NCBI GenBank assembly: GCA_002378745.1
Contig: DFRR01000003.1
Coordinates: 1 to 50,517, forward strand
DNA: 50,517 bases
Direction: 5' to 3'
Source: Patescibacteria group bacterium UBA3458
GTDB lineage: Bacteria > Patescibacteriota > Minisyncoccia > Phycocordibacterales > UBA2100
Shown here: piece by piece, positions 10,797 to 44,681 of the stretch
How positions within the stretch are numbered: position 1 is the first letter of the stretch
How the letters are laid out: each line of letters begins with the position of its first letter
Notes under the pieces: generated by a model
The model's input: only the letters and a program-made list of their open reading frames with translations
Databases searched by the model: none
What the model was told of the DNA's origin: nothing
Made by a program: the position numbers and the translations under genes

Positions 10797-10798
10797 CC

Positions 10799-22894: not shown

Positions 22895-24541
22895 ATGGCG
22901 AAAAAGGGACACAAATACATCTTTGTCATAGGGGGAGTAATGTCTGGAGTAGGCAAGGGTGTGGCAACCGCTTCTATCGGAAAGGTTTTGCAGTCAAACG
23001 GGTATAAGGTCAACTTGGTTAAAGTTGACCCGTATTTAAATGTGGACGCCGGTACCATGAACCCGACCGAGCATGGAGAAACCTTTGTGCTTCGCAGTGG
23101 GCTTGAGACCGACCAAGACATGGGAAACTACGAGCGGTTCCTCAACCGCGACCTTCCCGAAGAGAACTATGTGACCAGCGGTATGGTGTATCGCGCAGTC
23201 ATCGAGCGCGAGCGCAACCTCGAGTACGACGGTAATTGTGTTGAGGCAATACCACACATTCGTGATGAAATCGTTGAGCGATTTGAAAAAGCCGCATCAA
23301 TAAACGGTTCGCAAATAAGTGTTATCGAAATCGGTGGCACCGTCGGTGACTACCAGAACATTATGTTCATCGAGGCGGCACGTGTGATGAAGGCGCGCAA
23401 TCCGGACGATGTGCTCTTCATTATGGTGACGTACCTGCCGGTGCCGTCAAAAGTTGGTGAGATGAAAACGAAGCCGACACAAAACGCCATTCGTCAGCTC
23501 AATTCATACGGTGTACAGCCGGACTTCGTCATCGGGCGTTCAGAAGAAGTACTCGATGCACGACGTAAAGGTAAAATTGCCGAGCAATGTAACATTCGAC
23601 CCGACCATGTTATCTCAGCACCAGACATCGACAGCATTTACGATGTGCCACTGAACTTTGAACGCGACAATCTCTCGGGGCTCATCTTGAAGCAGCTCAA
23701 GCTCAAGAAAAAAGAGAAGCAGGTAGCGATGGCGCAATGGGCGTCATTCGTGCAGAAGGTACATAACCCGAAGAAAGAGGTGCACATTGCGATTGTTGGT
23801 AAATATTTCGACACGGGTGACTTTGTGCTCTCAGACGCATATATCTCAGTCATTGAGGCGATAAAATTCTCAGCCTACACGCTTGGCGCAAAGCCGGTGC
23901 TTACGTGGATTTCTTCGCAGAGCTTTGAAAACGGCAAGCGAAAGGTAAGTGAACTCAAGAAGTACGACGGTGTGATTGTGCCGGGTGGTTTTGGTTCAAC
24001 GGGTATTCCAGGAAAGCTTAAAGCTATCAAATTCATCCGTGAGAACAAGATTCCATACTTCGGTTTGTGCTATGGTATGCAGCTTGCGGTGGTGGAGTAC
24101 GCACAAAACGTACTCGGGCTGAAAGATGCGGCAACACGAGAAATGCACAAAGACGGCAAGCACTTGGTGATTGACATCATGGAAGACCAGAAAGAGAAGC
24201 TTCGCAACAAAAACTATGGCGGCACGATGCGTTTAGGTGCGTACCCGGCACACTTGAAGAAGGGAACCATTGCACGCGCTGCGTACGATCAAGAAATGGT
24301 AGAAGAACGACACCGTCACCGATATGAAGTGAATCCGGAATACATTTCGCAATTTGAAGAAGCAGGGTTGGTATTTTCAGGAACGTCACCAGACAAGACA
24401 CTGATGGAAATTATCGAACTTCCGAAGAAAGTACACCCATTTTTTCTTGGCACTCAATTTCATCCAGAGCTACAAGCGCGCCCGCTTGCGCCGCATCCTC
24501 TGTTTACAGAGTTTGTGAAGGCCTGTTTGAAGAAAAAATAA
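22895..24541 (+). CDS. pyrG: CTP synthase PyrG
   Basis: Starts 'KYIFVIGGVMSGVGKG', has the glutamine amidotransferase 'GLCYGMQ' Cys and 'HRHRYEVN'. ATG at 22895 is preferred over GTG at 22889. Confidence 0.95.
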   Translation: MAKKGHKYIFVIGGVMSGVGKGVATASIGKVLQSNGYKVNLVKVDPYLNVDAGTMNPTEHGETFVLRSGLETDQDMGNYERFLNRDLPEENYVTSGMVYRAVIERERNLEYDGNCVEAIPHIRDEIVERFEKAASINGSQISVIEIGGTVGDYQNIMFIEAARVMKARNPDDVLFIMVTYLPVPSKVGEMKTKPTQNAIRQLNSYGVQPDFVIGRSEEVLDARRKGKIAEQCNIRPDHVISAPDIDSIYDVPLNFERDNLSGLILKQLKLKKKEKQVAMAQWASFVQKVHNPKKEVHIAIVGKYFDTGDFVLSDAYISVIEAIKFSAYTLGAKPVLTWISSQSFENGKRKVSELKKYDGVIVPGGFGSTGIPGKLKAIKFIRENKIPYFGLCYGMQLAVVEYAQNVLGLKDAATREMHKDGKHLVIDIMEDQKEKLRNKNYGGTMRLGAYPAHLKKGTIARAAYDQEMVEERHRHRYEVNPEYISQFEEAGLVFSGTSPDKTLMEIIELPKKVHPFFLGTQFHPELQARPLAPHPLFTEFVKACLKKK

Positions 24542-24576
24542 ACCCATTAGGGATTACTACATAATTTTGTTTACCC

Positions 24577-25098
24577 ATGTTTTTAATGAAACATCGATCA
24601 TATCTGCCTGAATTCGTATACGGCAGCATGGACGGACTCGTGACCACGTTCGCCATTGTTACCGGTGCCGTTGGTGCCGGATTACCGGCAGGCGTCATTC
24701 TTATTCTTGGTTTCGCGAACGTCTTTGCAGATGGTTTTTCTATGGGTTCATCAAGTTACCTTTCTGCACTTTCAGAGCAACCACTACATGAGCACTACAT
24801 AGAGAAAGACCCGCTAAACAAAGCGCTCGTGACGTTCTCGTCATTCGTACTCATTGGTATTATTCCCATCTTGCCATTCGTTGTATCTTTCGTGAAGCCA
24901 GAGTTCTATACCTTTGCTATTGCTACATCAGTAATCACTACACTCATCGCGTTTGCATGTGTTGGAGCATTTTCTGGGGCAGTGCTTAATGAAAACAAAT
25001 TACGCAACGCAGCGCGTAACGTGCTTATTGGTGGTCTCGCTGCAGCTATCTCCTACGGAGTTGGGTTTGGGTTGGCGCAGGTATTTGGAGTCTATTAA
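24577..25098 (+). CDS. VIT1/CCC1-family (iron/manganese) transporter-like membrane protein
   Basis: The N-terminal motif is 'YLPEFVYGSMDGLVTTFAIVTGAVGAGL'. It has multiple TM helices and is 173 aa. Confidence 0.7.
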   Translation: MFLMKHRSYLPEFVYGSMDGLVTTFAIVTGAVGAGLPAGVILILGFANVFADGFSMGSSSYLSALSEQPLHEHYIEKDPLNKALVTFSSFVLIGIIPILPFVVSFVKPEFYTFAIATSVITTLIAFACVGAFSGAVLNENKLRNAARNVLIGGLAAAISYGVGFGLAQVFGVY

Positions 25099-25982
25099 TA
25101 TTCGATCAACATTTCCACGGGGTTGTGGTCTGAATGGGTGAACTCAAGGTCTACCGTCGTCACACGCTCTACTGAGATGTCAGGCGAGCAGATAAAGCCA
25201 TCTACCACTGCGGTGGTAGATTTTCCTTTTACATAGGGGCGATTCGATGCACGGAGCGTTGGTGTATCAGCGCAAAAGTGTGCACTCCAACCATCCTTGA
25301 GTAGATTATGTGGGAAGCTATGCAAATACTTTTGATAGCGTGCCTCGTCTTTTTCAAAGAAGTTAATATTGCCAGTGTGCATGTTCCAGTCAGCACCGAT
25401 AACCACTGCACAACCGTTTTGTGCGAGTCTTTTTACATACGTAATTAAGTCAAGGAACTGAGACATGCGTAGCACGCCGCGCGTATCAAATGAAGAAAGG
25501 TGTGTATTTACGAACGCAATGCATTTACCATCTTTAAGCTTCACGAATGTCGTGAGCGCGAAATCCCATCGTGGTATGAGGCGGTAGTAGTATTCGTGAA
25601 CAGTAAAAGGGCGCGTCTGTCTTCGGTAGACATCAAAGTCACCAGGTACGAACGTGCTCATGCCATGCTCGTTGCGTAGTAGGTCAAAAAACAATGGGAG
25701 GGAAAAGTTCGAAACTCGTGACTGCATGTGCTCAGGAAGTGCCTCTTGTACTGCTTTGCGGAGATTCTGCCAACGGTTGAGTAAGCTACCCGTTGAAAGC
25801 TCTTGCAACAGATATACGTCTGCGTGCATATCTCGTAGTGTTTGCTGAATACCTCGTATGTTTCGCTTAACGGCTTCTTTGGAAGAAGGAATAAAGCGAC
25901 GACCGCCTTCAAATGAGATATCGGCATCCGCGCCCATCGCGCCGTAGCCAAGGTTCCACGTGACGACTTTGAGTTTTGTCAT
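25095..25982 (-). CDS. Endonuclease/exonuclease/phosphatase (EEP) family protein
   Basis: Starts 'MTKLKVVTWNLGYG' at 25982. 'VYLLQE', 'GADWN' and the C-terminal 'SDHNPV' are EEP catalytic motifs. The ORF-track N-terminal extension to 26171 crosses tRNA-Gln and is rejected. Confidence 0.75.
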   Translation of the reverse strand: MTKLKVVTWNLGYGAMGADADISFEGGRRFIPSSKEAVKRNIRGIQQTLRDMHADVYLLQELSTGSLLNRWQNLRKAVQEALPEHMQSRVSNFSLPLFFDLLRNEHGMSTFVPGDFDVYRRQTRPFTVHEYYYRLIPRWDFALTTFVKLKDGKCIAFVNTHLSSFDTRGVLRMSQFLDLITYVKRLAQNGCAVVIGADWNMHTGNINFFEKDEARYQKYLHSFPHNLLKDGWSAHFCADTPTLRASNRPYVKGKSTTAVVDGFICSPDISVERVTTVDLEFTHSDHNPVEMLIEY

Positions 25983-26077
25983 TCGTGCATCATAGCAGGC
26001 CGCGCATTGAGCAGCGAGTATTTTTATGTATGATAGTGGGTATTGCGTTTCGTCCCGGCGGGGACGTTTCCGCATTT

Positions 26078-26148
26078 TGCCGGATCGTCTAATGGTAGGA
26101 CATCGCCCTCTGGAGGCGAGTATCTTGGTTCGAGTCCAAGTCCGGCAG
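26078..26148 (+). tRNA. tRNA-Gln (CTG)
   Basis: The acceptor is TGCCGGA/TCCGGCA with the Gln-typical U1:A72 pair. The D arm is GTCT-AATGGTA-GGAC, the anticodon loop is CTCTGGA, the T arm is CTTGG-TTCGAGT-CCAAG and the discriminator is G. Confidence 0.85.
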
Positions 26149-27840
26149 CAAACGTGAATTATCAGAGTCAATCTGACCAGAATAGCCTTGTTTCAACTGG
26201 GCTATTTTTGGTTCGAGCGTGATTTTCTGAGACCTGCTGAAATCGTAGGTGCTTCTGAGACCCAAAAGCGGAGAAGCGACTGAAATACTAAGTTTTTTGT
26301 CTTTCAGTGTGAGGTTCGAGCCGAGCGACTGCAATATCTCTCGCTTAGTGTCATTATCGCCATTTTTAAACTTGTCACGGGCTGTTTTAGCAGCGTGTAT
26401 GTAGTTATCAGCTATGCCCACCCAATCAACTGCGCGCTCGTGTAAGACGCGAATATTCTTACGTACATCAGATAGTTCAGACTCGACCGCCTCTTTTGAG
26501 TTGTGGAGCTGTTCTTTTGAGATCTCTTCGTTGGCTCGCATCATTACCAAGTTATCAAGCTTTTGAAGAAGCTCGGTTTCTCGTTTTCTGTTTTGCGCCG
26601 TGATGTTTTCTTGGTCGTATATCTCATTACGGTGCAAATACTTGATTGCTTCAAGTGCCCAAAGATAGAAGTCCTTAGGGATTGAAACAGAGGAGATCAC
26701 GCTGTCTATTTGTTTTTCGAGATCTTTCTCTTCAACATATTTCTGTGAACATTTTCCACGCTTCTTAGTGCAACGGTAGTATGTTTTGTCTATGATCGTT
26801 GGATTTTCTATCTCACTTACATCAAGCTTACACCGCGGGCAGCTAGAACTTGTCTTGATGGAGAACTTTCTCTTGCACGTAGTGCATCGAGCTTGGATCT
26901 TCCGTTCAGCTGTCACTGCGCATCCACACTCACCACAGAAAATTGATCCACGGAGAGCAAAGTCAGACTTATTGATCTTGGTAGGTCGACCACGCTTTCC
27001 GAGAAGAGTTTGCATTTTATCAAACTCATCTTCTGTGATCATCGTCTTGTGTTTTCCAGTAAAACTTTCTTTAACACCATCCTCGTTATTCCATTCAAAA
27101 GATCCGTAGTAAAAGGGGTGGGTAAACATATGCCAATACGCATTTAGTGAGTACCCCCGCCCATTTTTGTTTTTGAGACCTATCTTATCACCTTCGCGTT
27201 TGATGTCGGATACAGAGTAGTTTCCAGTAAGCATTTTTCGCCAAAGCGATTTCACGAGATCAAATCTCTCTGGATCAAGAACGATCTCATCCTCTCCAAC
27301 TCGATAATCTTTATTGTGCGTATACCCGATAGGGAGAACCGATGCGGGGTACCAACCTCGTGCAGCTTTTCTGCGCTGGCTTCGTTTTACGTCAACGCTG
27401 AGGTCGTTGCTGTATTGGTTGGACATACCAAGCTCAACCGCCATTAGCAGGACGTTGTCCCACGGGTTGTAGTCGCGGGAATATGTTTGAATTCTTTTGA
27501 TAACACCCTGCTGAAGCAGCCAACTTATTTGCCCACCATCAACAGGATTACGGGACAGACGATTTAATTTCCAACACAAGATGCCAGACGCTTCTTTATT
27601 TTGAATGCGCTCAAGCATTGTGTTGAAACCCTTGCGCATTCCAGGATACTTTGCTGACTGTGACTCAGTAATTGTGTCCACAATCTCCAGTCCTAGGCGC
27701 TCAGCTATCTTATGCATCTCAGCTAATTGATCCTCTATGGATGCCATTTGTTTGTCTTCGACATCGGTAGATTTTCTGACATAGAGGAAATATTTGATGT
27801 CTGATGGAGTTTGTATCTTCATAGTAGTTTGATTATACAA
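26089..27840 (-). CDS. Large serine recombinase (integrase) of the adjacent island
   Basis: 583 aa. The N-terminal resolvase catalytic domain is 'YVRKSTDVEDKQMASIEDQ'. It also has a recombinase domain, the zinc-ribbon cysteines 'CGECGC...CTTCKRKF...CPRCK' and a coiled-coil region. The last 19 codons plus the stop are antisense to tRNA-Gln. Confidence 0.9.
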   Translation of the reverse strand: MYNQTTMKIQTPSDIKYFLYVRKSTDVEDKQMASIEDQLAEMHKIAERLGLEIVDTITESQSAKYPGMRKGFNTMLERIQNKEASGILCWKLNRLSRNPVDGGQISWLLQQGVIKRIQTYSRDYNPWDNVLLMAVELGMSNQYSNDLSVDVKRSQRRKAARGWYPASVLPIGYTHNKDYRVGEDEIVLDPERFDLVKSLWRKMLTGNYSVSDIKREGDKIGLKNKNGRGYSLNAYWHMFTHPFYYGSFEWNNEDGVKESFTGKHKTMITEDEFDKMQTLLGKRGRPTKINKSDFALRGSIFCGECGCAVTAERKIQARCTTCKRKFSIKTSSSCPRCKLDVSEIENPTIIDKTYYRCTKKRGKCSQKYVEEKDLEKQIDSVISSVSIPKDFYLWALEAIKYLHRNEIYDQENITAQNRKRETELLQKLDNLVMMRANEEISKEQLHNSKEAVESELSDVRKNIRVLHERAVDWVGIADNYIHAAKTARDKFKNGDNDTKREILQSLGSNLTLKDKKLSISVASPLLGLRSTYDFSRSQKITLEPKIAQLKQGYSGQIDSDNSRLLPDLDSNQDTRLQRAMSYH

Positions 27841-27843
27841 TTT

Positions 27844-28125
27844 TTAAGAATTTTCGTATTCTTGGATAATTTCCTCAATACGACAGATGAACTCCAAGAG
27901 AAGACCTTGATCAATGATTTTGTCCTGGATTTCCCCAATCTCTTCGTCGCTAAGATTTCTACCAATGTGTTCATTTGCAATCTCTTGAAAGAATTCTTCA
28001 TCTAATATGAATGGTGGTTCTAAGTACATATGTTGAGTTTTATTTTGTAAGTTCACTTCCTTCATTTTGTTCATTTTTGATCTCAAAACGCCTCTGCGCT
28101 TCTTTAAGAGCGTTTTCATTTCCAA
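27844..28125 (-). CDS. Small acidic hypothetical protein (start probably internal, e.g. 28029)
   Basis: The ORF lies directly upstream of the recombinase gene. The longest form overlaps the preceding gene by 86 nt. There are no recognisable motifs. Confidence 0.35.
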   Translation of the reverse strand: MEMKTLLKKRRGVLRSKMNKMKEVNLQNKTQHMYLEPPFILDEEFFQEIANEHIGRNLSDEEIGEIQDKIIDQGLLLEFICRIEEIIQEYENS

Positions 28126-29329
28126 GAATAGGTACTATGTACCCATTACCTGTACGGTGTGTTTTAAGGTGTAGTTTTCTGCGGAGTATTTGCCCGATAG
28201 CCTTGCTGTGTATCCCTAAGCCGCAGTGGTGTGCAATTTCGTGCACAGTTGGTTTGTCTTTCTTTTTCTGAAGCTCTAGGAGCGCTGAAAGCACTACGTA
28301 TTCATCAGTTTCCTTGAATGTTTCAATTACTCGTCGATGGTGAGAGAAAGCTGCATTTACAAGGAAAGACTGTTCTTGCATCGTAGGGGCGATATTCATA
28401 AGCGGGAAGAACACCTGCCGTATACGTGGATGCACATCTTCACTTATTGCTAATCGACTCTTGGAGAGCACTTCTTTTGTGAAGGAGAATCGGTAAGCAA
28501 GGAGCATATTTCTTAATTCCAACGCTTCTTTTTCGAAACAATCGGGAAGAGTTGTTGGGACTTCATTGCGCGCCCCTGTTCCCACTACAACTTCAGATAA
28601 GCAACGACTCTCCAGTGCGTCATCTTGAAAACGCTCTCGAGTCGCAAGTAGCTTTGGTCCGTAGACCCAGAATGATTTCGGGTTAAATATGCCGTTCTTG
28701 CCATCTACACGCATAACAGGGAATCGTCTAGAATATCCCTGGTTAAGTATTTGAGCGATAGGGGTAGTCATATCAGAGAAGGCATAGTTCGCTTCATCAA
28801 GCACCATTGTGCCTCTCACTTGATCAACAATACGGAGAATGGATGCTGAAGTTGTTGAACCTCCTGCAAATGTTGCTTTGTAGCAAATTGACCCCACGAC
28901 TTCTAAGAAGCGTGTCTTTCCGCTTCCTGGATTTCCCAAAACACGAAGGTATGGGACTTCACTAAAGAAGTCATACACCCACGTAAGAAGGACATAATGC
29001 GCGACTATATTCTCGTATTCAGGAGACACTGCCACATACCTGTGTATATACTCCTGAACTCGCTTAAGGAGTGCCGAATCACTCTCATAGTTGCCAACCT
29101 CGCTTGGGAGGAGAATGACCCGATCCTCAAGGAGTTTGTTATGACCGCTTATGGGTTTGTAGACCATATCGTCGATCGGAAGGGATTTCTTTGTGTCCAT
29201 TTTGCCCTCTCGTTTTACACAGAAGAAGCTCTGACAATCCTTTTTGTTGTAGACAGACTCCGCTATCACGTTTCCGTGTTTGATGGATAGTATTTCCACT
29301 ACCTTCTTCTTATTTTTATCGGTGTTCAT
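28040..29329 (-). CDS. P-loop NTPase, DUF3631-like (mobile-element replication/primase-associated type)
   Basis: Has Walker A 'GNPGSGKT' and Walker B 'MVLDEA'. The segment 'ILNQGYSRRFPVMRVDG...FWVYGPKLLATRE...ALESRC' is recalled as the DUF3631 pattern found in integrative elements. The C-terminus is wHTH-like. Confidence 0.55.
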   Translation of the reverse strand: MNTDKNKKKVVEILSIKHGNVIAESVYNKKDCQSFFCVKREGKMDTKKSLPIDDMVYKPISGHNKLLEDRVILLPSEVGNYESDSALLKRVQEYIHRYVAVSPEYENIVAHYVLLTWVYDFFSEVPYLRVLGNPGSGKTRFLEVVGSICYKATFAGGSTTSASILRIVDQVRGTMVLDEANYAFSDMTTPIAQILNQGYSRRFPVMRVDGKNGIFNPKSFWVYGPKLLATRERFQDDALESRCLSEVVVGTGARNEVPTTLPDCFEKEALELRNMLLAYRFSFTKEVLSKSRLAISEDVHPRIRQVFFPLMNIAPTMQEQSFLVNAAFSHHRRVIETFKETDEYVVLSALLELQKKKDKPTVHEIAHHCGLGIHSKAIGQILRRKLHLKTHRTGNGYIVPILGNENALKEAQRRFEIKNEQNEGSELTK

Positions 29330-29342
29330 GTCGTTTTTTGTT

Positions 29343-29588
29343 TTAGAAATCTTCGTACTCTGTTGGGAGTTTTGAGAAAGAGTTTTGCACGTTCATAAGC
29401 ATTTTAGGCTCGACCTTTGTTTTACCTTCGAAGTATGCAATGACGTTATCTTCAATCTCTTTACTTGCTCCAAAAGAGAAATATGGGTTTAGTTTATTTC
29501 CTCTTCCGTACATCACTTTTGGGTACTCTTCCATAATGATGTATAGAGTCGCTGCAAGCGTGATGTCGTTCGTTATGTAATTTTTCAT
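29343..29588 (-). CDS. Small hypothetical protein, paralogue of 29741-29968
   Basis: 81 aa. It shares the N-terminal 'D(I/F)(T/A)LAATL' motif with its neighbour and resembles small phage/plasmid proteins. Confidence 0.45.
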   Translation of the reverse strand: MKNYITNDITLAATLYIIMEEYPKVMYGRGNKLNPYFSFGASKEIEDNVIAYFEGKTKVEPKMLMNVQNSFSKLPTEYEDF

Positions 29589-29739
29589 AGTTGTGTAAGT
29601 TATTTAGATTGTTGGTAGCTGCGACGAAGCGAATCAACTCGGCACTCTCGGTGAGTGCTTGTGCTTTTGTTATCTCCTTTCCGTAATGCCGTTTGTACAG
29701 CTCTTGGAAGGTAGTTAAGAGTTGATCCGAAAGTTGCAT
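29494..29739 (-). CDS. Small helical hypothetical protein
   Basis: 81 aa, 'LLTTFQELYKRHYGKEITKAQALTESAELIRFV'. The 3' end overlaps the next gene by about 95 nt, so the C-terminal extent is doubtful. Confidence 0.35.
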   Translation of the reverse strand: MQLSDQLLTTFQELYKRHYGKEITKAQALTESAELIRFVAATNNLNNLHNYEKLHNERHHACSDSIHHYGRVPKSDVRKRK

Positions 29740-29740
29740 A

Positions 29741-29968
29741 CTATCCAGCGTGAATAATCGATTTTAGAAACTTCTGGGAATACAGAAATTTCTGTGGGCT
29801 GATACAGATTTCGTCTCTGTAGTAAGCGGGCACCACTCGTTCTACGTCCTCGGTTTTTTCAAAACGAAAAACAAACTTGTTACCAAGCTTTCGTTCGTGT
29901 TCAAGATATTTAGCTCCTAGGGCGTGGAGAGTAGCAGCGAGGGCGAAGTCTTCAGTTTCGTAGATCAT
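29741..29968 (-). CDS. Small hypothetical protein, paralogue of 29343-29588
   Basis: 75 aa, 'MIYETEDFALAATLHALGAKYL'. It is the first gene of the leftward small-gene string. Confidence 0.45.
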   Translation of the reverse strand: MIYETEDFALAATLHALGAKYLEHERKLGNKFVFRFEKTEDVERVVPAYYRDEICISPQKFLYSQKFLKSIIHAG

Positions 29969-30079
29969 ATTCTGTTTATGTAATGCTCATAAATTTTTAT
30001 CGACCAATAACCAAACAGTAAGAAAAAGAAAAAGCTGAAAAAATGACGAAAGCATATTTTTGACACACTAAAAATCCCT

Positions 30080-30104
30080 GCTGGTGCAGGGTTTTATGAG
30101 TTTT
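30080..30104 (-). terminator. Bidirectional hairpin terminator downstream of the 238-aa gene
   Basis: 'aaaaatccctgc tggt gcagggtttt' has a 6-bp GC-rich stem flanked by an A-run and a T-run. Confidence 0.6.
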
Positions 30105-30121
30105 CCACTTTTTAAGCTTTC

Positions 30122-30838
30122 TTAAGTTTTGTTTTTGCGTTGAACGTATGCTTTCTCACTGATCGAGTCTATCTGTATGGCGGGGCATAGCTCGCTTCCT
30201 TCTTGTCGAACTATTGTAGATATGGGCAAACGGGTCTGTGTGTACAGACGATTATTTTTGTTGGAGTTGAGGTAGTCTAGTACTTTCTTTTGGTACAGGG
30301 CATAACCTTTTGTTGCAATCTCGTATAGAGAACTCCAAGTAGGCTTAGCTCGGTCACCCATTATTGGATTTTGGTAATCATCATTAACAACCATCAAAAA
30401 CTTATTTCCGCCGTCTTTTGGTTTTATGCAGGTGATTTTGTATATGGAGTTGTCCGACTTTAGGCTCGGTTTCTTAGGAATTACTTTCTCAACCGATCGA
30501 AGATACGCCAGCCGTTCAGTGGCTGCTGTGCGTATGTTCTTGAGGAGTTGTTGTGACTCTTTGCTCTCTATGTATGAATATTCAAGTCCGCCTTTAAGAA
30601 AGGGAACGTTATCTGCTTCGAGAAAATATAAAGCACCTTTTTCGTTGTTGATCGATAAAAAGAAATCCCTAACCGCCTCCTTCCATAGATGATAGTCACG
30701 AAAAGTGTCGTGCATTTTTTCGACAGGATTGTCCGCATATAAAATATCGCCCTCGTGGGCGCTGTGTGTGATGAGAATTCCTTTGCGAACTAACTCGTCG
30801 AAAGTATCTCTTATAGCCGCCTGGTTCTTAATACTCAT
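30122..30838 (-). CDS. Hypothetical protein (238 aa), island-encoded
   Basis: A long ORF with normal amino-acid composition, an own terminator and a divergent promoter region. No motif was recognised. Confidence 0.5.
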   Translation of the reverse strand: MSIKNQAAIRDTFDELVRKGILITHSAHEGDILYADNPVEKMHDTFRDYHLWKEAVRDFFLSINNEKGALYFLEADNVPFLKGGLEYSYIESKESQQLLKNIRTAATERLAYLRSVEKVIPKKPSLKSDNSIYKITCIKPKDGGNKFLMVVNDDYQNPIMGDRAKPTWSSLYEIATKGYALYQKKVLDYLNSNKNNRLYTQTRLPISTIVRQEGSELCPAIQIDSISEKAYVQRKNKT

Positions 30839-30843
30839 ATTTA

Positions 30844-30852
30844 TGGTATAAT
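30844..30852 (+). promoter_or_regulatory. Extended -10 promoter element (TGGTATAAT) facing the 31043 gene
   Basis: A perfect TGnTATAAT lies about 190 nt upstream of the ATG at 31043. On the other strand it overlaps a TATGAT-type box 8-12 nt upstream of the divergent 30838 start. Confidence 0.4.
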
Positions 30853-31042
30853 CATACTACAACTGAATAAGAAATGACCTAACCCTTCGGCTTTTGCTGG
30901 AGATATGGTCGAAAATCGTAGACCACAGAAAACCCATCATTAGGGCGTGGTCTACGTTATAGGGGGAAACTCCTATAGGAGCTTCGGCTCTCCTAGTGGT
31001 GGGCTTTTTGTACCCACCCGCTTAGTAGCTTTCTGAATCAAT

Positions 31043-31990
31043 ATGAAAACTAATCGGGGCTTTATTTCAATATTTGCAGCAGTACTTATTGTCCTTGGTG
31101 TTACTGCGGTTGCAGGAGGAGGGTATGTCGCGACCCAATATGCGTTACGGGATAATACGCATCAGCAACCCATTGCTGAAGAAGAGAGAATTGCAACTTC
31201 AAGCACTCACACACAAACGAGTGTGCCCCAGGAAGAACAGAAGGACACAGAAAAACCACCCCTTAATCTCGACGACTACAAAATAGAAAGTGAACAGACA
31301 GAGCCCTCACATCCAGAGGACTTGGCAGACTCTATGCTCGCCGATATTGAGCGCCTCACATATGTCGATACTCTCGAACAAGACATCGTCGATTTCAGGA
31401 GGCTATTAAATGCGATTTCTAAGAACGAAGCACTCTACATAAAGTTTGCACAAGATGCAGGTAATGATAGAGCTGACGCACTTGATAGTTTGACTTCACT
31501 AACGACGAACGCGGAACTCAAACAGCTTATCTCAAGCTCTGCTACAGATTTTCGTGGGCACGCAACAAATGCGGCAGATGAACTTAGTGAACCTTATGAA
31601 CTTGTAGCAAGCGAAGTCAAAAAGTATCTTGCAGCAACAGAAGCAGCGAAACGTGCAATCGAGCAAGGAGCACCTTACAATGACGCAGAAGGGGTTATTG
31701 CTGAGAATAAACAACAATTTGAACGGCTGGTTAGTTTGTTGGAGTCTGCAGATAGTGCGGTGCGCAATGTTGAGAACGCAAAAGCAGATATCTATTCAGA
31801 AACACTATCATCTATACGTGACATACTTGCAGTGCAGAGTGTATCGTTTAGTCTGAGTGCTCAGTTGGCGAATATCGAGCAAGAAGCGCTTGAGAATACC
31901 TTGCCGCAAACTGAAATACAGTGCTGGGCAACTACTGAATACAGTGGTGGGTTGAATGGCTCATCATACACGACGGTCAGATGTGAGTAG
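31043..31990 (+). CDS. Membrane-anchored / secreted coiled-coil protein, function unknown
   Basis: 315 aa with an N-terminal hydrophobic anchor 'GFISIFAAVLIVLGVTAVAGGG', followed by an acidic, Ala/Glu-rich helical region. Confidence 0.5.
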   Translation: MKTNRGFISIFAAVLIVLGVTAVAGGGYVATQYALRDNTHQQPIAEEERIATSSTHTQTSVPQEEQKDTEKPPLNLDDYKIESEQTEPSHPEDLADSMLADIERLTYVDTLEQDIVDFRRLLNAISKNEALYIKFAQDAGNDRADALDSLTSLTTNAELKQLISSSATDFRGHATNAADELSEPYELVASEVKKYLAATEAAKRAIEQGAPYNDAEGVIAENKQQFERLVSLLESADSAVRNVENAKADIYSETLSSIRDILAVQSVSFSLSAQLANIEQEALENTLPQTEIQCWATTEYSGGLNGSSYTTVRCE

Positions 31991-31992
31991 AT

Positions 31993-32292
31993 ATGAAAAT
32001 ACAAATTCCAAAAGAATACGAAGAACACTTCCGAGATGACGTTGTGTATGTGACAAGATGGAAATCGCCGAGCTTACTTTTGATGAACGAAGCAGAGCAC
32101 GATAGTTTCCAGAAAATTCTTGAAGGCTCTCGGGTGGATTGTAAAGATGGGATGCTACGCTTCATTCGGGCTGGAATTCTTGATCTCAAAATTGAGGATG
32201 GGGCTATAGATATCCCCAATGGTGTGGGTAGCTTCCTACAAGGTGAAAACAGGGCATTTCATAGGGGAAAAGCAGGAATTGCGCTCTCCTAG
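31993..32292 (+). CDS. Small hypothetical protein (weak MraZ/AbrB-like two-repeat impression)
   Basis: 99 aa, starting 2 nt after the previous stop. It contains 'KIQIPKEY' and a second 'AIDIPNGV' repeat. The assignment is speculative. Confidence 0.35.
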   Translation: MKIQIPKEYEEHFRDDVVYVTRWKSPSLLLMNEAEHDSFQKILEGSRVDCKDGMLRFIRAGILDLKIEDGAIDIPNGVGSFLQGENRAFHRGKAGIALS

Positions 32293-32316
32293 GGATAGGT
32301 TTGATTTGAATTGGGG

Positions 32317-32372
32317 TTGACATATTCAAACTTAGCGTATAAACTCTGAATATACCTTTTGGTATTCAGAAT
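32317..32372 (+). promoter_or_regulatory. Candidate promoter plus an inverted repeat upstream of the Fic / R-M array
   Basis: TTGACA (32317-32322) and TATAAA (32338-32343) are separated by a short 15-nt spacer. An imperfect inverted repeat 'tctgaata(ta)cc tttt ggtattcaga' (32345-32370) abuts the ATG at 32373. Confidence 0.35.
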
Positions 32373-33515
32373 ATGGCTAAGAAAAAGCAGTGGAAATCTG
32401 GCACATATCGCCAGCAATATGAATACAAGAGCTTTCTCCCCGAGAAGGTGAATGTTCCATTTGAGTGGGAGGATCCTCGCATTGACCTTCTCTTGAGTGA
32501 TGCAATGCGCTACCTGGGCGAGCTTAATGCTTATTCCACACTCGTGCCTGATGTCGACTTCTTCATCCAGATGCACATCTCAAAAGAAGCAACTGTCTCA
32601 AGTCGCATTGAGGGTACGGAGACTAACCTTGATGAGGCGCTTTTGTCTGAAGATGAAATTGACCCAGAAGATCGTGATGACTGGGGTGAGGTGCAGAACT
32701 ATATCAAGGCAATCAACTTTTCAGTTGAGAAACTTTCCGAACTGCCATTGTCTACACGCCTGGTGAAGGACACACACAAAGTGCTCCTCTCTGGGGTGCG
32801 TGGATACAGCAAGTTGCCAGGAGAGATTCGTACAAGCCAAAACTGGATTGGAGGGTCTTCACTTACGGATGCGGCTTTCATTCCACCGCACCACACTGAT
32901 GTTGCTGACCTTCTCGATGATCTGCAGAAGTTTTGGCACAACAAGCAGCTTCAAGTACCCGAATTGGTACGGATTGCTTTGACCCACTATCAGTTTGAGA
33001 CAATCCACCCGTTCCTTGATGGAAACGGGCGTATTGGACGTTTGCTCATCACGTTGCAACTTATCGACCTCGGCATCCTTCAGAAGCCAACGCTCTACAT
33101 CTCTGACTTCTTTGAGCGCAATCGATCGAAATACTACGACTCTCTTTCACGAGTACGCGAGAGTAATGACATTGAGCACTGGGTTCGCTTTTTCTTGCAG
33201 GGCGTCGTTGAGACTGCAAAGAAAGGGAAAGAAACATTCGAGAAGATCATTGCCCTTCGTGCAAAGTATGAGCAGATCATTGAGGAGCGAATGGGAGTGA
33301 AGCGGCAGAAGCTCGCAAAACAGCTTCTACTCAAACTCTTCTCCAAACCCGTCGTAACGGTGAATGACATCGCTGAGATGCTCAACGTGACCTTCCAGAC
33401 GGCAAACACACTCGCCAAAGAGTTTGAAGACGCGGGGCTCTTTGAGGAGAAAACAGGCTTTTCTAAGAACCGCATCTTTTATTTGCGAGAGTACCTAAAA
33501 CTCTTTAACCACTAA
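32373..33515 (+). CDS. Fic/DOC-family protein (AMPylase type) with an N-terminal inhibitory helix and a C-terminal wHTH
   Basis: The Fic motif is '[12 protein letters not shown]' and the inhibitory motif (S/T)xxxE(G/N) appears as 'SSRIEG'. At 380 aa it fits the Fic_N + Fic + HTH architecture. Confidence 0.9.
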
Positions 33516-33519
33516 ACGT

Positions 33520-35505
33520 ATGAACGACTTCAGCAAAAAAGCAGCCCTTATATGGAACATCGCGGACATTCTCCGTGGTGGCTGGAAGCAGCACGAATAT
33601 CAGGATGTAATCCTGCCGCTTTTAGTGTTGAAGCGTTTGGACGCTATTCTCTCTGATTCGAAAGAGAAGGTGCTTGATAAGTACAACGAATACAAAGGGA
33701 AAGTAGATGTCGATCCGATCTTGAAGAAAACGTCAGGTGTTGGCTTCTACAATGTATCACCGTACGACTTCAAAAAGCTCACTGAAGATCACACGCATAT
33801 CGTTAAGAACTTCCACAACTACCTCAACGGCTACAGCGATAACATTCGTGACATCTTCGACAAATTCAACTTCGATAAGCAGCTCGAGCGTCTTGAGGGT
33901 GGCAATATGCTCTACCTCATCATCCAAGAGTTCAACAAGGTAGACCTTCACCCAGACAGTGTTGATAACCATCAAATGGGACTTATCTTCGAGGAATTGC
34001 TCCGAAAATTCTCAGAAATGTCCAATGAGACTGCGGGAGAGCACTACACGCCCCGTGATGTGATTCGGCTTATGGTCGAGGTTCTCTTCACTCCTGATGA
34101 GAAGCTACTCAAGAAGCCGCACGTGATTAAAACAGTGTACGATCCTGCGTGTGGTACAGGCGGGATGCTCACTATCGCTAAGGATTACATCCTCAACGAG
34201 ATCAACAAAGACGCATCAGTGTATCTGCACGGACAAGAACTCAACTCGGTCACATACGCTATTGCGAAGTCCGATATGCTTATCAAGGGTGAGGATCCAG
34301 AGTTGATTCGTGGTGGAGAAAAAAATCACACTAAAGCAAGCACGCTCTCAAATGACCAGTTCTTTGGGGAGAGCTTTGATTACGGGCTTTCAAATCCACC
34401 ATATGGCGTTGATTGGAAAAAAGATAAGGATGCAGTTGAGAAAGAAGCGACCCGTGGATTTGCGGGGCGGTTTGGTGCAGGCACGCCTCGTATCTCAGAC
34501 GGACAGCTTCTTTTCCTCCAACACTTGGTTTCTAAAATGCGACCCACAAAAGACGGTGGATCTCGTGTTGGTATTGTCCACAACGGCTCACCGCTCTTTA
34601 CAGGTGATGCTGGAAGCGGAGAAAGTGAAATTCGTCGTTGGCTTCTTGAGAAGGATTATCTCGAGGCAATCATCGCACTCCCAGATCAGCTTTTCTACAA
34701 CACAGGCATCAACACATACCTGTGGTTTGTGAGTAACCGCAAATCACCTGAACGCCAGGGCAAAGTGCAGCTTATTGATGGACGTGAGTTCTATGGGAAG
34801 CTACGTAAAACGCTTGGCGCAAAGCGTAAAGAAGTAGATGAGGAAGGACGTAAGCAGATTATGAAGCTCTACACCGACTTCAAGGAAAATGAGCATTCTA
34901 AAATATTCGACACTACGGACTTTGCATATCGCCAAGTTACGATTGAGCGTCCCTTGCGGCTCAACTTCCAGGTATCACCAGAGCGCAGTGAGCTTGTAAA
35001 AGAAGAGAAAGTGTTCCAACGCCAAAAGCCAACAATCCAAGAAGAAATTCTTGGGGCACTATCTAATTTTCCAGACAAAAAGCTGTTTACTGACCGAGAG
35101 AAGTTCCTAAAGGTTTTCAATTCGCATATGAAGGAGCTAAAACTTGGCGCCCCATTGAAGAAAGCAATCCTCAACGGTTTGTCTGAGCAGGATGAAAATG
35201 CAGAGATTTGTCGTGACAGCAAGGGTAATCCAGAACCAGACGGCAACTTGCGAGACCAAGAAAACGTACCGTGGGGCGTAAGTGTCGAAGAGTACTTCAA
35301 AAAAGAGGTACAGCCATACGTTGAGGATGCGTGGCTCAATGAAGAGGTGCGAGATCATAAGGACAACCAGGTTGGGAAGGTTGGCTACGAGATTCCGTTC
35401 ACACGATACTTCTACACGTATGAACCACCACGTGATCTTGAGGAAATCGAAAAGGATATTGAAGGTGTGGAGAATGAACTCCTCACGCTTTTGAAGCAAC
35501 TATAA
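33520..35505 (+). CDS. hsdM: Type I restriction-modification methyltransferase subunit HsdM
   Basis: The N-terminal HsdM_N region is 'IWNIADILRG', the AdoMet motif is 'DPACGTGGML' and the catalytic motif is 'NPPYG'. Confidence 0.95.
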   Translation: MNDFSKKAALIWNIADILRGGWKQHEYQDVILPLLVLKRLDAILSDSKEKVLDKYNEYKGKVDVDPILKKTSGVGFYNVSPYDFKKLTEDHTHIVKNFHNYLNGYSDNIRDIFDKFNFDKQLERLEGGNMLYLIIQEFNKVDLHPDSVDNHQMGLIFEELLRKFSEMSNETAGEHYTPRDVIRLMVEVLFTPDEKLLKKPHVIKTVYDPACGTGGMLTIAKDYILNEINKDASVYLHGQELNSVTYAIAKSDMLIKGEDPELIRGGEKNHTKASTLSNDQFFGESFDYGLSNPPYGVDWKKDKDAVEKEATRGFAGRFGAGTPRISDGQLLFLQHLVSKMRPTKDGGSRVGIVHNGSPLFTGDAGSGESEIRRWLLEKDYLEAIIALPDQLFYNTGINTYLWFVSNRKSPERQGKVQLIDGREFYGKLRKTLGAKRKEVDEEGRKQIMKLYTDFKENEHSKIFDTTDFAYRQVTIERPLRLNFQVSPERSELVKEEKVFQRQKPTIQEEILGALSNFPDKKLFTDREKFLKVFNSHMKELKLGAPLKKAILNGLSEQDENAEICRDSKGNPEPDGNLRDQENVPWGVSVEEYFKKEVQPYVEDAWLNEEVRDHKDNQVGKVGYEIPFTRYFYTYEPPRDLEEIEKDIEGVENELLTLLKQL

Positions 35506-35507
35506 CT

Positions 35508-36800
35508 ATGTCGAAATTAACGCTTACAAAAAAATACGGTGTGTATCCAAATTACAAGGACTCTGAAATTGATTGGATTGGACTCACTCCTACTGACTGG
35601 CAAGCACTGCCTCTTCGAGCGGCTCTCGTGGAGAGAAAAGAAAAAAATAGATCTCTAGTTTCTGACAATATCCTTTCCGTAATGAAGGACGTTGGAGTAA
35701 TCCGTTATGCTGACAAAGGAGATATTGGAAATAAAAGTTCTACTCGTCCTGAGAACTACAAGATAGTTCACCCTGGCGACATTGTTATCAATAGTATGAA
35801 CCTTGTGATCGGTTCAGTAGGTCAATCGCGGGAATTTGGTGTAACGAGTTCCGTGTATATCATCTACGCGCCTAGGACTGAGGACATAAACGCAACATAC
35901 TACTCATATATTTTCCGAAACAGAAGTTTCCAAAAACATATGGCTCGCTTCGGTAAGGGAATAATGGAACTTCGAGAATCAATAAAACCAATTGATCTAA
36001 AAAATCAGATCTTGCCTATCCCACCCAAAGATACGCAGGATAAAATTGTAGAATTTTTGGACGAAAAAACGGCGACAATCGACCGCATTATTGAGAAAAA
36101 GCAGCGGCAGATTGAGTTGCTCAAAGAAAAGCGAGCGGCAGTAATCAATCACACTGTTACAAAAGGTCTCGATCCAAAAGCGAAACTCGTCGACTCTGGT
36201 GTGGAGTGGATGGGAGAGATTCCTTCAGATTGGGATAAAGAAAAACTGAAGTTTGTTGCGCCACTTCGTAACACTAAGGCTAATAAAGAAAAGGTTGATC
36301 TGCCGTATGTAGGTCTTGAACACATTGAAAGTGCAACTGGTCGGCTATTGAAGAGTGAAGAAAAGGCGGAGCCTGAGAGCGTTGTGAATCTGTTTGAGAA
36401 AGGCGATGTCCTCTTTTCAAAGCTACGCCCAAATTTAGCTAAGGTATTACTCCCTGAATTTGATGGTATGTCTACAGGAGAGCTGCTTGCACTAACCCCA
36501 AATACAACGAAGATAATTCCATCATATCTTTTCTACAAACTGATCAGTAGAGATTTTATTAACAAGGTTTGTGACTCTGTTTATGGAGCAAAAATGCCGC
36601 GAGCAAACTGGAATTTGATTGGCAGTCTATACATTACATACCCATCAATTTCTGAGCAGAAAAAAATAGTAGACCATATAAACAAAAAGGTTGAAAAAAT
36701 TGATGCCGCATTGGAGTTAATTCAAGATTCCATAAAAACATTGCAGGAATTCAAATCATCGCTGATTTCACACGCTGTAACTGGAAAAATAAAAGTATGA
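35508..36800 (+). CDS. hsdS: Type I R-M specificity subunit HsdS (two target-recognition domains)
   Basis: 430 aa. The central and C-terminal conserved helices are 'IIEKKQRQIELLKEKRAAVINHTVTKG' and 'IKTLQEFKSSLISHAVTGKI'. It lies between hsdM and hsdR. Confidence 0.9.
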   Translation: MSKLTLTKKYGVYPNYKDSEIDWIGLTPTDWQALPLRAALVERKEKNRSLVSDNILSVMKDVGVIRYADKGDIGNKSSTRPENYKIVHPGDIVINSMNLVIGSVGQSREFGVTSSVYIIYAPRTEDINATYYSYIFRNRSFQKHMARFGKGIMELRESIKPIDLKNQILPIPPKDTQDKIVEFLDEKTATIDRIIEKKQRQIELLKEKRAAVINHTVTKGLDPKAKLVDSGVEWMGEIPSDWDKEKLKFVAPLRNTKANKEKVDLPYVGLEHIESATGRLLKSEEKAEPESVVNLFEKGDVLFSKLRPNLAKVLLPEFDGMSTGELLALTPNTTKIIPSYLFYKLISRDFINKVCDSVYGAKMPRANWNLIGSLYITYPSISEQKKIVDHINKKVEKIDAALELIQDSIKTLQEFKSSLISHAVTGKIKV

Positions 36801-39748: not shown

Positions 39749-39752
39749 ACCT

Positions 39753-41111
39753 ATGCAAGCTGCCTTTAAAAAATTTCTCACGAACATAAAACTCACCGTT
39801 CCTCAAAAAGAGGACGCAAAGACAAAAACGAGAAGTGTTTGTAAGGCACTCCACGCTAAGTACTATCCGAACACCGAGTATAACGGCAGCACCAAATTCT
39901 TGGTTGGTTCTTATGGTAAACACACAAATATTCGTCCACCGAAGGATATAGACGTGATTTTCAAGTTACCTCCAGAGTTATATGAGCAATACAGTTCGGG
40001 TAATAAACAGTCGCAGCTATTACAGGATGTCCGAGCAGTTTTGAAAGATACCTTCACTACCACTGAGAAAATCAGCGCTTTCGGTAAGGTGATAGTAATT
40101 AACTTCAGCGAGGGTACTCATTCGGTTGAATTACTACCTGGTTGGGAGTTAGAGTCTGGGTCATTTCGCATTCCTAACACGGAGAACGGGGGATCTTGGG
40201 ATGTGTGGAATCCGCTTGCAGAAGATAAAAATATAGATGTCTCAAGTGTGGCGACAAAAAAGACCCGATCTCTTATACGGATGATGAAAGCGTGGGTGAA
40301 TAATTGCGGCGTACCACTCAAATCATTCGTGTTAGAGATATTGGTAGTTGATTATTTGCACGAGCAATACAATAACAACGTGACGGTTGAGTATCCAGAA
40401 CTTGTTCAGGGATTCTTTGACTTTCTTAAGAATAAAAAGCACGGTTCTATATATCTACCTGCTTCTGGTACGCATATGAATTTAGGGGAGGATTGGTACT
40501 CACGAGCTGAAAGTGCGTACAATCGCGCCACAAAAGCTATTGAATACGAACAGGCGGATAAATTGCGGGATAGCTCTCTTGAGTGGAAGAAAATTTTTGG
40601 TGATGACTTCCCATTGGTAGACGCTAAAGAAGCCGCCGTAGCTACTGTTGGTTCAAGTTTTGAACTGAAAATAGAAGAGTTGACCCAAAGGTATCCTTCG
40701 CCAGCTGAGGAAGATATCACTGAACAATACGGGATTCCTGTTCGTCTCGTCTCTGGGTATCAAATTGAGATTGACGCTGAGGTAACACAGAAAGGTTTTA
40801 GGAAAGGAATGCTATCGGACTTCATAGCGAAGCGATTTCCTCTGTTGAAAGGTAAAAAGCTTCTTTTCTCTGTAAAGCATTGCAACATACCGCCTCAGTA
40901 TGAAGTGATGTGGAAGGTCAGAAACTTTGGAGAGGAAGCACAGCGGGCGGAAGGTCTACGGGGAGAGATAAATCGAGACAGTGGATTCAAGCAACGTGAA
41001 GAAAGTACGCTTTATCACGGCGAACACTATGTTGAATGCTACGCCATCAAAGATGGTGTTTGTGTTGCGGTTGGGAAAATATTAGTACCTATTGGAACAA
41101 GTTATGAATAA
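39753..41111 (+). CDS. CD-NTase / SMODS-type nucleotidyltransferase with an AGS-C-like C-terminal domain
   Basis: 452 aa. The pol-beta NTase core is 'FLVGSYGKHTNIRPPKDIDVIF' (G52-S53, D65-x-D67). The third acidic position lies in 'HSVELLPG' (E126). The C-terminal beta-rich domain has 'YEVMWKVRNFGEEAQRAEGLRGEI'. The gene starts 4 nt after the hsdR stop. Confidence 0.7.
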   Translation: MQAAFKKFLTNIKLTVPQKEDAKTKTRSVCKALHAKYYPNTEYNGSTKFLVGSYGKHTNIRPPKDIDVIFKLPPELYEQYSSGNKQSQLLQDVRAVLKDTFTTTEKISAFGKVIVINFSEGTHSVELLPGWELESGSFRIPNTENGGSWDVWNPLAEDKNIDVSSVATKKTRSLIRMMKAWVNNCGVPLKSFVLEILVVDYLHEQYNNNVTVEYPELVQGFFDFLKNKKHGSIYLPASGTHMNLGEDWYSRAESAYNRATKAIEYEQADKLRDSSLEWKKIFGDDFPLVDAKEAAVATVGSSFELKIEELTQRYPSPAEEDITEQYGIPVRLVSGYQIEIDAEVTQKGFRKGMLSDFIAKRFPLLKGKKLLFSVKHCNIPPQYEVMWKVRNFGEEAQRAEGLRGEINRDSGFKQREESTLYHGEHYVECYAIKDGVCVAVGKILVPIGTSYE

Positions 41112-42635: not shown

Positions 42636-42650
42636 GTATAATTACATTAT

Positions 42651-43577: not shown

Positions 43578-43607
43578 AAAGACAGAATTTTAGTATAATT
43601 ATGGGTA

Positions 43608-44207: not shown

Positions 44208-44230
44208 TGAACATAATGAACATAATGAAC
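44204..44230. repeat. Perfect 3 x 9-bp tandem repeat (ATAATGAAC)
   Basis: 'ataatgaac ataatgaac ataatgaac' overlaps the stop codon of the 43608-44207 gene. Confidence 0.9.
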
Positions 44231-44243
44231 TTTATGTACGTCT

Positions 44244-44381
44244 ATGAAAGGTAATAAGGAGATTAAAATAACTTATTGTGAGTTGGAGGATGTCGATCAA
44301 AAGCAGGTTGATGCCGCGTTCGACATTCTTTTTAACGAGGTAATTTGTCTAGATAACTTGGGAAAAAGTGCATCTGAGTAG
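44244..44381 (+). CDS. Very small ORF (45 aa), possibly a gene remnant
   Basis: 'MKGNKEIKITYCELEDVDQKQVDAAFDILFNEVICLDNLGKSASE'. It falls below the ORF-track cutoff and lies in the 250-bp gap at the presumed island boundary. Confidence 0.2.
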   Translation: MKGNKEIKITYCELEDVDQKQVDAAFDILFNEVICLDNLGKSASE

Positions 44382-44679: not shown

Positions 44680-44681
44680 TC

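Follow-up and report, generated by a model that had tools for sequence, protein, structure and literature searches.

Integration changes the C-terminus of a phage repressor in the mycobacteriophages with integration-dependent immunity, and SSV-type archaeal elements target tRNA genes. In those mycobacteriophages (BPs and its relatives), the attachment site of the element (attP) lies inside the repressor gene (PMC4557955). Archaeal suicidal integrases (SSV1, pTN3, pT26-2) have the recombination site in their own gene, which is fragmented by integration, and a 2021 review describes these self-disrupting enzymes as tyrosine integrases exclusive to archaea (PMC8371274). According to a 2014 paper, only tyrosine-family integrases were then known to target tRNA genes (PMC4383910). 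Here, we analyzed a stretch of 50,517 nt (hereafter the window) from a candidate phyla radiation (CPR) genome, Patescibacteria group bacterium UBA3458, whose assembly comprises 699 kb in 17 contigs and is 94.7% complete (the window being contig C3, DFRR01000003.1). In it, the gene of a large serine recombinase (LSR) runs antisense into a tRNA-Gln(CTG) gene. We consider it highly probable (roughly 85%) that this overlap is the left junction (attL) of an 18.27-kb island inserted by the LSR, that the LSR gene spans the island's own attP, and that recombination took place at a CAGC core.

ARAGORN called the tRNA-Gln(CTG) on the plus strand, as the preliminary description of the window had it, and placed its last base at 26149 in place of 26148. 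A single-sequence minimum free energy fold recovered the acceptor and anticodon stems only, not the full cloverleaf, and the ARAGORN call was used. The gene encodes no CCA, is still intact after integration, and is single-copy in the whole assembly. The tRNA-Gln(TTG) gene is broken over two contig ends (C13:1-24 and C17:1-68) at a 13-nt D-arm stretch that it has in common with tRNA-Gln(CTG); this split is an assembly break and not a second island junction. The minus-strand open reading frame (ORF) of 583 aa had been described as continuing to 26089 with its last 19 codons antisense to the tRNA, and the translation agrees. Specifically, the 3′ end of the gene (26089-26220) translates to ...LEPKIAQLKQGYSGQIDSDNSRLLPDLDSNQDTRLQRAMSYH and a stop, the last 44 residues before the stop are TLEPKIAQLKQGYSGQIDSDNSRLLPDLDSNQDTRLQRAMSYH, and the tRNA's reverse complement supplies both the stop and the final 19 residues (LPDL...SYH, 26092-26148).

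The protein carries the Pfam domains Resolvase (PF00239, 58 bits against a cut-off of 23.3, residues 18-162), Recombinase (PF07508, 36.5 bits against 21.1), and Zn_ribbon_recom (PF13408, 28 bits against 25.3), each over its curated cut-off. Residues R22 and S24, the latter presumably the catalytic nucleophile, were invariant across 25 aligned homologues, and the invariant cysteines were C302, C305, C319, C322, C334, C337, C357, and C364. An AlphaFold model of an intact homologue (P0083), built in place of the window LSR from a 30-sequence alignment, had a mean predicted local distance difference test (pLDDT) score of 80.7 and placed long paired helices (382-499) between zinc-ribbon strands. 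The clade is common, with 2070 homologues at E<=0.001 among 8000 scored (120 listed), and the closest named homologue bears the source label Candidatus Kaiserbacteria. Every catalytic and DNA-binding domain recognized by Pfam survives integration.

The lead to the right end of the island came from the C-termini of homologues, that is, from comparing VRT-type tails with the minus strand near the suspected end. About 30 of the 120 listed relatives end in a conserved ...EPK...KQG...L..VRT[S/C][I/L][I/L] tail, and many of the 120 end in antisense-tRNA peptides (DSNQ, DSNL, GFEP, and similar). In 29 intact homologues, the pattern ...EPK...L..VRT[S/C][I/L][I/L] keeps constant spacing. The LSR ORF of the window has no VRT-type ending of its own in the integrated state; such a piece stands at the far end of the island, where the minus strand from 44424 to 44332 translates to S, a stop, LTELKKVRTSIMATQMHFFPSYLDKLPR, and a further stop, with the VRT motif piece right after the first stop codon. 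Read from 44418 downward, the frame gives L-TELKKVRTSIM...PR to its stop, and because a stop directly precedes this frame, the core is exactly where family similarity begins.

To score this piece against the genome, we used a 14-aa tail profile made from the post-junction part of the 29 intact homologues. Of 34 proteins matching the VRT regular expression, five had been dropped: P0021, P0093, and P0106 as false matches, and P0076 and P0087 since these proteins end at VRT. Among 31,005 six-frame genome pieces, the one from 44418 ranked first (17.2 bits, E 0.0041; next best 10.9 bits). Joined in silico at the core, as in a circle, the gene reads ...SRLL (to 26146) and then TELKKVRTSIM... (from 44415) with the frame unchanged, and the join restores the EPK-to-VRT spacing of intact homologues such as P0083. 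With a C-terminal profile, the excised reading scored 88.6 bits, the ORF as it stands 72.7, and the part common to both 68.5, the split-off native piece adding 20 bits. The proposal of the preliminary description that the C-terminus would differ between the integrated and excised forms is thus borne out by an in-frame native piece (44335-44415, minus strand) that is also the top tail match genome-wide.

The two junctions, GGCAGC/AAAC at 26149/26150 and GTCAGC/TAGC at 44419/44420, have only CAGC in common, and its CAG gives the same minus-strand CTG (Leu) codon at both. A crossover at the tRNA 3′ end, also proposed earlier, fits this core (26146-26149 and 44416-44419), while the right end of the island, formerly put at about 44.2-44.3 kb, was found at 44.42 kb. 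A repeat search of the window found no long direct repeat of the tRNA 3′ part at the right end, which in hindsight was to be expected because the core is only 4 nt long. The crossover dinucleotide itself would lie within the core. In a run from which the assembly may derive, each junction is spanned by one contig; this is not independent support.

We propose that the LSR placed the island at the very 3′ end of tRNA-Gln(CTG), its catalysis being deduced, and that its gene crosses the island's own attP, with crossover within the 4-nt CAGC. In the free circle, the core would lie 27 codons ahead of the natural stop of the LSR gene. Integration would move these 27 native codons to the right junction (attR; 44335-44415, minus strand), and the integrated ORF would read on through the antisense tRNA to a chance stop in the D-loop. 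The mature tRNA would be unchanged, with only its 3′ trailer swapped.

A same-genus replicate came from the complete genome G008, in which the EEP-family gene, tRNA-Gln, and LSR are in the same order (69.6% identity to the window over 23615-27627). The synteny of an EEP-family gene followed by tRNA-Gln is kept in four same-genus genomes. The island cargo of G008 is unrelated to that of the window, and its far end, 8.56 kb away, reads stop, LAELRKVRTTILVEN, stop, after which comes a flank that opens with TAGGCACAGA; both G008 junctions contain the same GCTG core block. A second attR-like remnant was located 1.7 kb past the first (about 10470-10545 of L013, G008:C1:656000-675999), with GGTTCTAAT 24 nt ahead of ACAGC and LLNEIRTYLAR between stops on the minus strand. 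This remnant suggests that the same tRNA site has been used more than once and that older elements have decayed.

Alignment with a relative lacking the island, one of the checks named in the preliminary description, placed the boundary at 26149. Specifically, a strain about 93% identical in the EEP gene, from the unrelated seawater run X2, has an identical tRNA, diverges exactly after 26149, and is without the window island after its tRNA. Thirty loose letters behind the tRNA of this strain match the G008 post-attR flank at 24 of 30 positions in a manual count, and the X2 sequence is, judged by sequence, an unoccupied site for the G008 element. From such empty and occupied sites, we infer that the LSR catalyzes recombination between attP and the chromosomal attachment site (attB). 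G004 and G007 also have tRNA-Gln(CTG) with the same left flank and without an LSR. They were not used as clean empty sites because the sequence downstream of the tRNA (L005 from G004, 2538-2600; L004 from G007, 60-125) loosely resembles the LSR 3′ end (AAAT...TTCAGAG), and this stretch may be a relic of a lost element. G002 was rejected as an empty site, its tRNA-Gln being the TTG isoacceptor with a DUF2200 gene behind it (L020, G002:C5, 1353-1853, 75 nt after the tRNA); in the window, the DUF2200 homologue stands just past the variable region behind tRNA-Gln(CTG).

Since tandem arrays and relics do exist, the piece at 44335-44415 could be imagined as the relic of a different, decayed recombinase from an older tandem element, in which case the present attP would lie past the LSR stop and the C-terminus would never have differed. 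Besides the second attR-like remnant of G008, 1.7 kb further on, L025 has two fragments with LSR-like residues ahead, and L068 has two LSRs in series. We consider this relic origin improbable, for in both the window and G008 the similarity starts exactly at the core, after a stop and unrelated or attB-flank sequence, and joining at the core gives the exact EPK-to-VRT spacing of intact homologues. Moreover, the present LSR ORF is without a VRT-type ending of its own, and the X2 empty site sets the insertion boundary at 26149.

The arrangement recurs across the LSR family. We examined 80 loci from species-representative genomes, with the ORF end inside the locus in 74, and 80 metagenome loci from a scan with alignment A4, 59 of them classable. 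In 82 of 133 loci (45/74 genome and 37/59 metagenome), the LSR ORF runs into an antisense tRNA and stops inside it or past it. In the genome set, 40 ORFs stop inside the antisense tRNA and five read right through it; the tRNA is always entered by at least 10 nt, and several of the other loci end at contig edges or precede T-loop-like sequence uncalled by ARAGORN. No same-strand tRNA was found within 200 nt of the ORF end in the genome set, nor in any of the 133 related loci. At least 15 anticodons are represented among the targets, which include tRNA-Asn, His, Gly, Trp, Tyr, Gln, Lys, Ile, Val, Glu, Thr, Arg, Ser, Ala, and Leu. These counts bear on a further alternative, namely chance read-through, the tRNA being island-borne or another enzyme having inserted the island. 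Antisense tRNA is indeed poor in stops in some frames, and the assembly is a metagenome-assembled genome. Against this stand the same arrangement in 82 of 133 related loci with 0 of the opposite kind, the presence of tRNA-Gln with the same left flank and no LSR in G004, G007, and the X2 strain, the uniqueness of tRNA-Gln(CTG) in the genome, and the finding of no other recombinase family among the island ORFs scanned (Pfam, PHROGs; short ORFs left out). We regard chance read-through as very improbable.

Comparison of homologue C-termini, likewise foreseen in the preliminary description, showed that the ends follow a tRNA T-stem base pair, while the roughly 30 listed relatives above keep the VRT-type tail. 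The T-stem of G008 is CTAGG/CCTAG, versus CTTGG/CCAAG in the window, and the G008 LSR ends ...LLSD because CTAGG puts TAG in the same frame. Six of the ten nearest proteins have the ending ...SYH and the other four LL[P/S]D, with one T-stem base pair deciding between these ends, and the run length of the ORF is therefore set by the tRNA sequence. Across relatives, the tRNA-encoded tail measures from 3 to >70 residues without a common sequence; given this variation in length, we argue that the tail itself is incidental, apparently a by-product without a function of its own.

Far ends were also sought in other members. In the 554 kb upstream of the LSR in the 82 tRNA-type loci, the tail profile at >=10 bits gave nine matches on the LSR strand versus one on the other, and a looser regular expression gave 19 versus seven. 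In six loci (L056, L078, L058, L087, L116, and L088), the residues before the fragment are the LSR's last pre-tRNA residues (WGG, VCA, WR, LR), and loci with recovered fragments have in-frame cores, 5-10 nt long, where the tRNA ends at its 3′ side. The L085 fragment was dropped as doubtful, having no consistent core, and the regular-expression matches in L060, L064, L079, L084, and L094, with CGG/AGG arginine codons, were treated as chance. A metagenome scan with the single LSR protein returned no matches. Cultured phages and plasmids yielded only distant integrases (<= ~27% identity) and IMG/VR four loci at 20-24% identity, with no attP-form relative in either. Terminal repeats were present in none of the 39 whole-contig metagenome loci tested, and no circular form was seen among them.

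Several observations weigh against our reading of the locus. The preliminary description had pointed to circle and empty-site joints in the same population as a check, and the search of Logan contigs, in which uncovered X2 stretches were not counted as evidence, found none in the X1 contigs. Contigs of X6 and X7 did not align to the window. Of the right flank of the window (44420 on), only the first 3 bases (TAG) agree with the G008/X2 attB flank; moreover, the G008 post-attR flank is absent from the window's genome, and the window right flank had no tblastx match <=20 kb downstream of tRNA-Gln in G008, G004, and G014. No clear symmetric motif was recognized by eye in the arms P′ and B′. The two locus sets overlap in at least one contig (L088 = L111), and far-end fragments were found in a minority of loci, the 10-kb flanks being such that longer elements are expected to escape. 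Intact-tail LSRs also occur inside large chromosomal contigs, which means that a chromosome can carry an attP-like site that has not recombined. Tandem arrays account for some of these copies, as in L068, though this is not shown for all. The two copies in G042 have nearly identical sequence after the stop, of which the split-gene model gives no account. A last point on the same side is that the residues after VRT keep a small-hydrophobic-hydrophobic pattern while their codons differ, which hints at selection on the peptide and weakens a pure by-product reading of the tail.

The tandem case itself, L068, has two LSRs in series (413-2077 and 9473-11073) with 7 kb between them. The first has an intact VRT-type tail, and the second ends in tRNA-Asn and is 24% identical to the query; the locus looks like a tandem array in which the neighbor's far end completes the inner LSR gene. 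The intact-tail LSRs of G042 (Bacteroidia) lie on the same strand, 41 kb apart, at C5:83571-85112 and 126451-127974 (L188, L030), and neither has a tRNA close by. No antisense tRNA was found near intact-tail Bacteroidota members.

With the same architecture, the swap could also have a function: the native tail might be a degron or an autoinhibitory or partner-binding element, and its exchange would alter the stability, activity, or directionality of the LSR, such that the island would sense its own integrated or free state. The conserved pattern after VRT would fit such an isoform switch, as would two further facts: the ORF crosses attP in all tRNA-type members, which come from several phyla, and at attR the native tail still reads through in frame, in the window as in G008. 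Precedents for this logic exist in integration-dependent immunity (PMC4557955) and in archaeal suicidal integrases (PMC8371274). However, the P0083 model assigns pLDDT <50 to residues 534-571 (the EPK-to-VRTSIIDS tail), which are predicted to be disordered, and a good part of the tail's conservation can be put down to the DNA level, V-R-T being nearly always coded [GA]TT [AC]GA ACC and the motif recurring in another frame at [FL]EP. Additionally, the integrated-form tails, of 3 to >70 residues, have no common sequence, and the catalytic and DNA-binding domains are all intact after integration. From sequences and the model, we would rank the by-product reading first and hold a real switch to be possible yet unlikely. 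A shade more doubtful is the wider idea that this serine integrase clade (CPR/Patescibacteria, Bacteroidota, and others) uses the split gene as a state sensor, with the tail setting stability or directionality; the recombinase would then bear its native VRT-type tail when made from the free element and a meaningless tRNA-derived one when made from the integrated element.

In the window and G008, GGTTC starts 19 nt ahead of the core on the tRNA arm and 24 nt ahead on the P arm, and the second G008 remnant also has 24 nt. Parsed by eye and counted as nucleotides after the core in LSR-sense orientation, GAACC lies at 14 nt on the tRNA side and 19 nt on the far-end side in the window and likewise in G008, at 11 and 16 nt in L056, 10 and 15 in L078, 13 and 18 in L087, 12 and 17 in L058, and 9 and 14 in L025. 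The offset is +5 bp, further out on the P-arm side, in 7/8 pairs, L085 being without a clear core, and the motif is visible in one arm of each att site only. For the Listeria LI integrase, the zinc ribbon domain reads a 9-bp motif that occupies attP half-site positions 16-24, with the same motif 5 bp nearer the center in attB (PMC3783163). In the window, the nine bases encoding V-R-T occupy positions 16-24 after the core, and ACTCGAACC of the tRNA occupies 11-19. Because these positions fit the LI integrase rule, we read the T-loop as the putative zinc-ribbon motif of the B arm, of which attP would carry a mimic. Most likely, the site would be chosen by the zinc-ribbon domain, which would read the B-arm T-loop (GGTTCGA), and the mimic in attP, 5 bp further out, would encode the conserved V-R-T of the native tail. 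V-R-T is nearly always coded [GA]TT [AC]GA ACC, a constancy that would follow from the mimic if this holds. Additionally, nt 71-73 are where the cores of different tRNAs overlap, which makes this the probable place of the crossover dinucleotide.

The preliminary description had also noted that a 10-nt T-arm segment recurs inside the recombinase gene. The copies are exact, and TTGGTTCGAG occurs exactly twice in the window (26125-26134 and 26208-26217; about 0.06 expected, with 0/100 shuffles reaching two). As a mark of the crossover, however, the second copy fails, since it lies 60 nt away and encodes a conserved LEP motif. The [FL]EP motif was present in 48/74 loci with skewed codons: TTC 19 versus TTT 3 for Phe (same-gene background 545 versus 930) and GAA 46 versus GAG 2 for Glu (background 2238 versus 1128). 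This skew argues that the DNA word TT[CA]GAACC is conserved there too, in a reading frame that differs from that of VRT and outside the 25-bp half-site. The word, seen at 26208-26217 in the window and at the equivalent codons in L024-L103, might either serve accessory binding or be the fossil trace of an older tRNA junction.

The cargo region is a defence island beside a tRNA in a 699-kb CPR genome (Table 1). GC content is 0.41-0.46 in the island versus about 0.47-0.50 outside, and no repressor-type match was found among the island ORFs scanned. Between attR and the DUF2200 gene stand a membrane-protein ORF and an Excalibur-domain ORF. The stretch containing them (44420-45017) is missing at this place in the ~93% X2 relative and is on other contigs in G004 and G007. 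Because the similarity of the X2 strain to the window resumes only at 45018, this stretch is a separate variable segment.

Table 1. Features of the window around the tRNA-Gln(CTG) gene and the proposed island
Feature	Position	Strand	Basis or remark
tRNA-Gln(CTG), chromosomal target	26078-26149	+	ARAGORN
Large serine recombinase ORF, integrated state, 583 aa	26089-27840	-	ORF call and Pfam
Junction-derived tail after core codon, 18 codons PDLDSNQDTRLQRAMSYH	26092-26145	-	Antisense tRNA; stop 26089-26091 in D-loop
B-arm motif, T-loop GGTTCGAG (putative)	26127-26134	+	GGTTC starts 19 nt ahead of core
attL core CAGC	26146-26149		tRNA nt 71-73 and first trailer base; sole block common to both junctions
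Defence island, 18,270 bp	26150-44419		Left junction attL at tRNA, right junction attR
P′ arm of attP, within LSR coding sequence (...DSDNSRLL)	26150-26175		Adjoins core
Second T-loop-like motif TTGGTTCGAG	26208-26217	+	Encodes family-conserved LEPK; 60 nt from core
Island cargo, unknown genes and defence genes	27844-44207		Pfam, PHROGs, PADLOC scans
SoFic	32373-33515		
Type I restriction-modification hsdM/S/R, complete system	33520-39748		
CBASS-like SMODS/AGS-C cyclase and SLATT/2TM effector	39753-41568		
356-aa unknown	41565-42635		Between 2TM effector and PDC-S11
PDC-S11 (DUF4268)	42651-43577		
199-aa unknown	43608-44207		
Split-off native LSR C-terminal piece, 27 codons TELKKVRTSIMATQMHFFPSYLDKLPR and stop	44332-44415	-	In frame with core CTG
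P-arm motif GGTTCTAAC, putative T-loop mimic	44392-44400	+	Encodes V-R-T on minus strand; GGTTC starts 24 nt ahead of core
attR core CAGC	44416-44419		Junction comparison
B′ flank and further variable segment	44420-45017		Membrane-protein ORF and Excalibur-domain ORF
Small membrane-protein ORF	44461-44679		

Two textbook statements, that tRNA targeting is not a known serine-integrase trait and that self-disruption is confined to archaea, would need revising, as the clade appears to break both (PMC4383910, PMC8371274). A literature search, largely without subscription journals and supplements, turned up no serine integrase described as having attP within its own ORF or as targeting tRNA genes. 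Because islands of this kind leave only a 4-10 nt repeat, island finders based on tRNA fragments should miss them. The VRT-type piece that integration splits off is a new handle on far ends in CPR genomes, for which the charting of mobile elements is poor. The last 3 to at least 70 residues of many database "recombinase family proteins" are antisense tRNA and not the outcome of protein evolution. If the T-loop is indeed the zinc-ribbon motif, the clade provides a natural integrase series on at least 15 tRNA genes by anticodon with one recognition logic, which bears on integrase specificity and tool design. Were the state-sensor idea true, it would mean directionality control in streamlined genomes without a separate factor and a bacterial serine-family counterpart of the archaeal suicidal integrases, in a clade that would also be a natural set of T-loop-reading, tRNA-targeting serine integrases.

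Compared with known systems, the LSR has the domain order of phiC31, Bxb1, and the Listeria A118/LI integrase (resolvase, recombinase, zinc ribbon), and, as for large serine integrases, the shared core is very short (4 nt) with no long repeat. The motif standing 5 bp further from the center in attP than in attB is a likeness to the LI integrase (PMC3783163). Unlike the phiC31/Bxb1/LI type, however, the element goes into a tRNA gene at its 3′ end, and identity to the integrases of cultured phages and plasmids is <= ~27%. As in Islander/TIGER tyrosine islands, an intact tRNA stands upstream of the island, whose integrase gene adjoins the tRNA 3′ end and which carries accessory/defence cargo; in those islands a displaced piece of the tRNA stays behind as a direct repeat (PMC4383910), whereas here the repeat is 4 nt. 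The likeness to integration-dependent immunity in mycobacteriophages, already drawn in the preliminary description, holds for the architecture, with attP inside a gene other than the target, and a functional switch is not part of what holds. In the mycobacteriophages, the gene is a repressor, the integrase is of the tyrosine type, and the consequence is shown experimentally, whereas here the split gene is the recombinase itself and the likeness is architectural. Similar to SSV-type elements, the LSR has its att site in the integrase gene, which integration partitions. In contrast, the SSV-type gene is cut into two large parts, a cut believed to preclude excision, while the bacterial serine LSR loses its last 27 codons only and keeps every recognized domain. 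With serine-recombinase domains only and no tyrosine fold in Pfam, the LSR is not a member of the SSV type, but it works alike.

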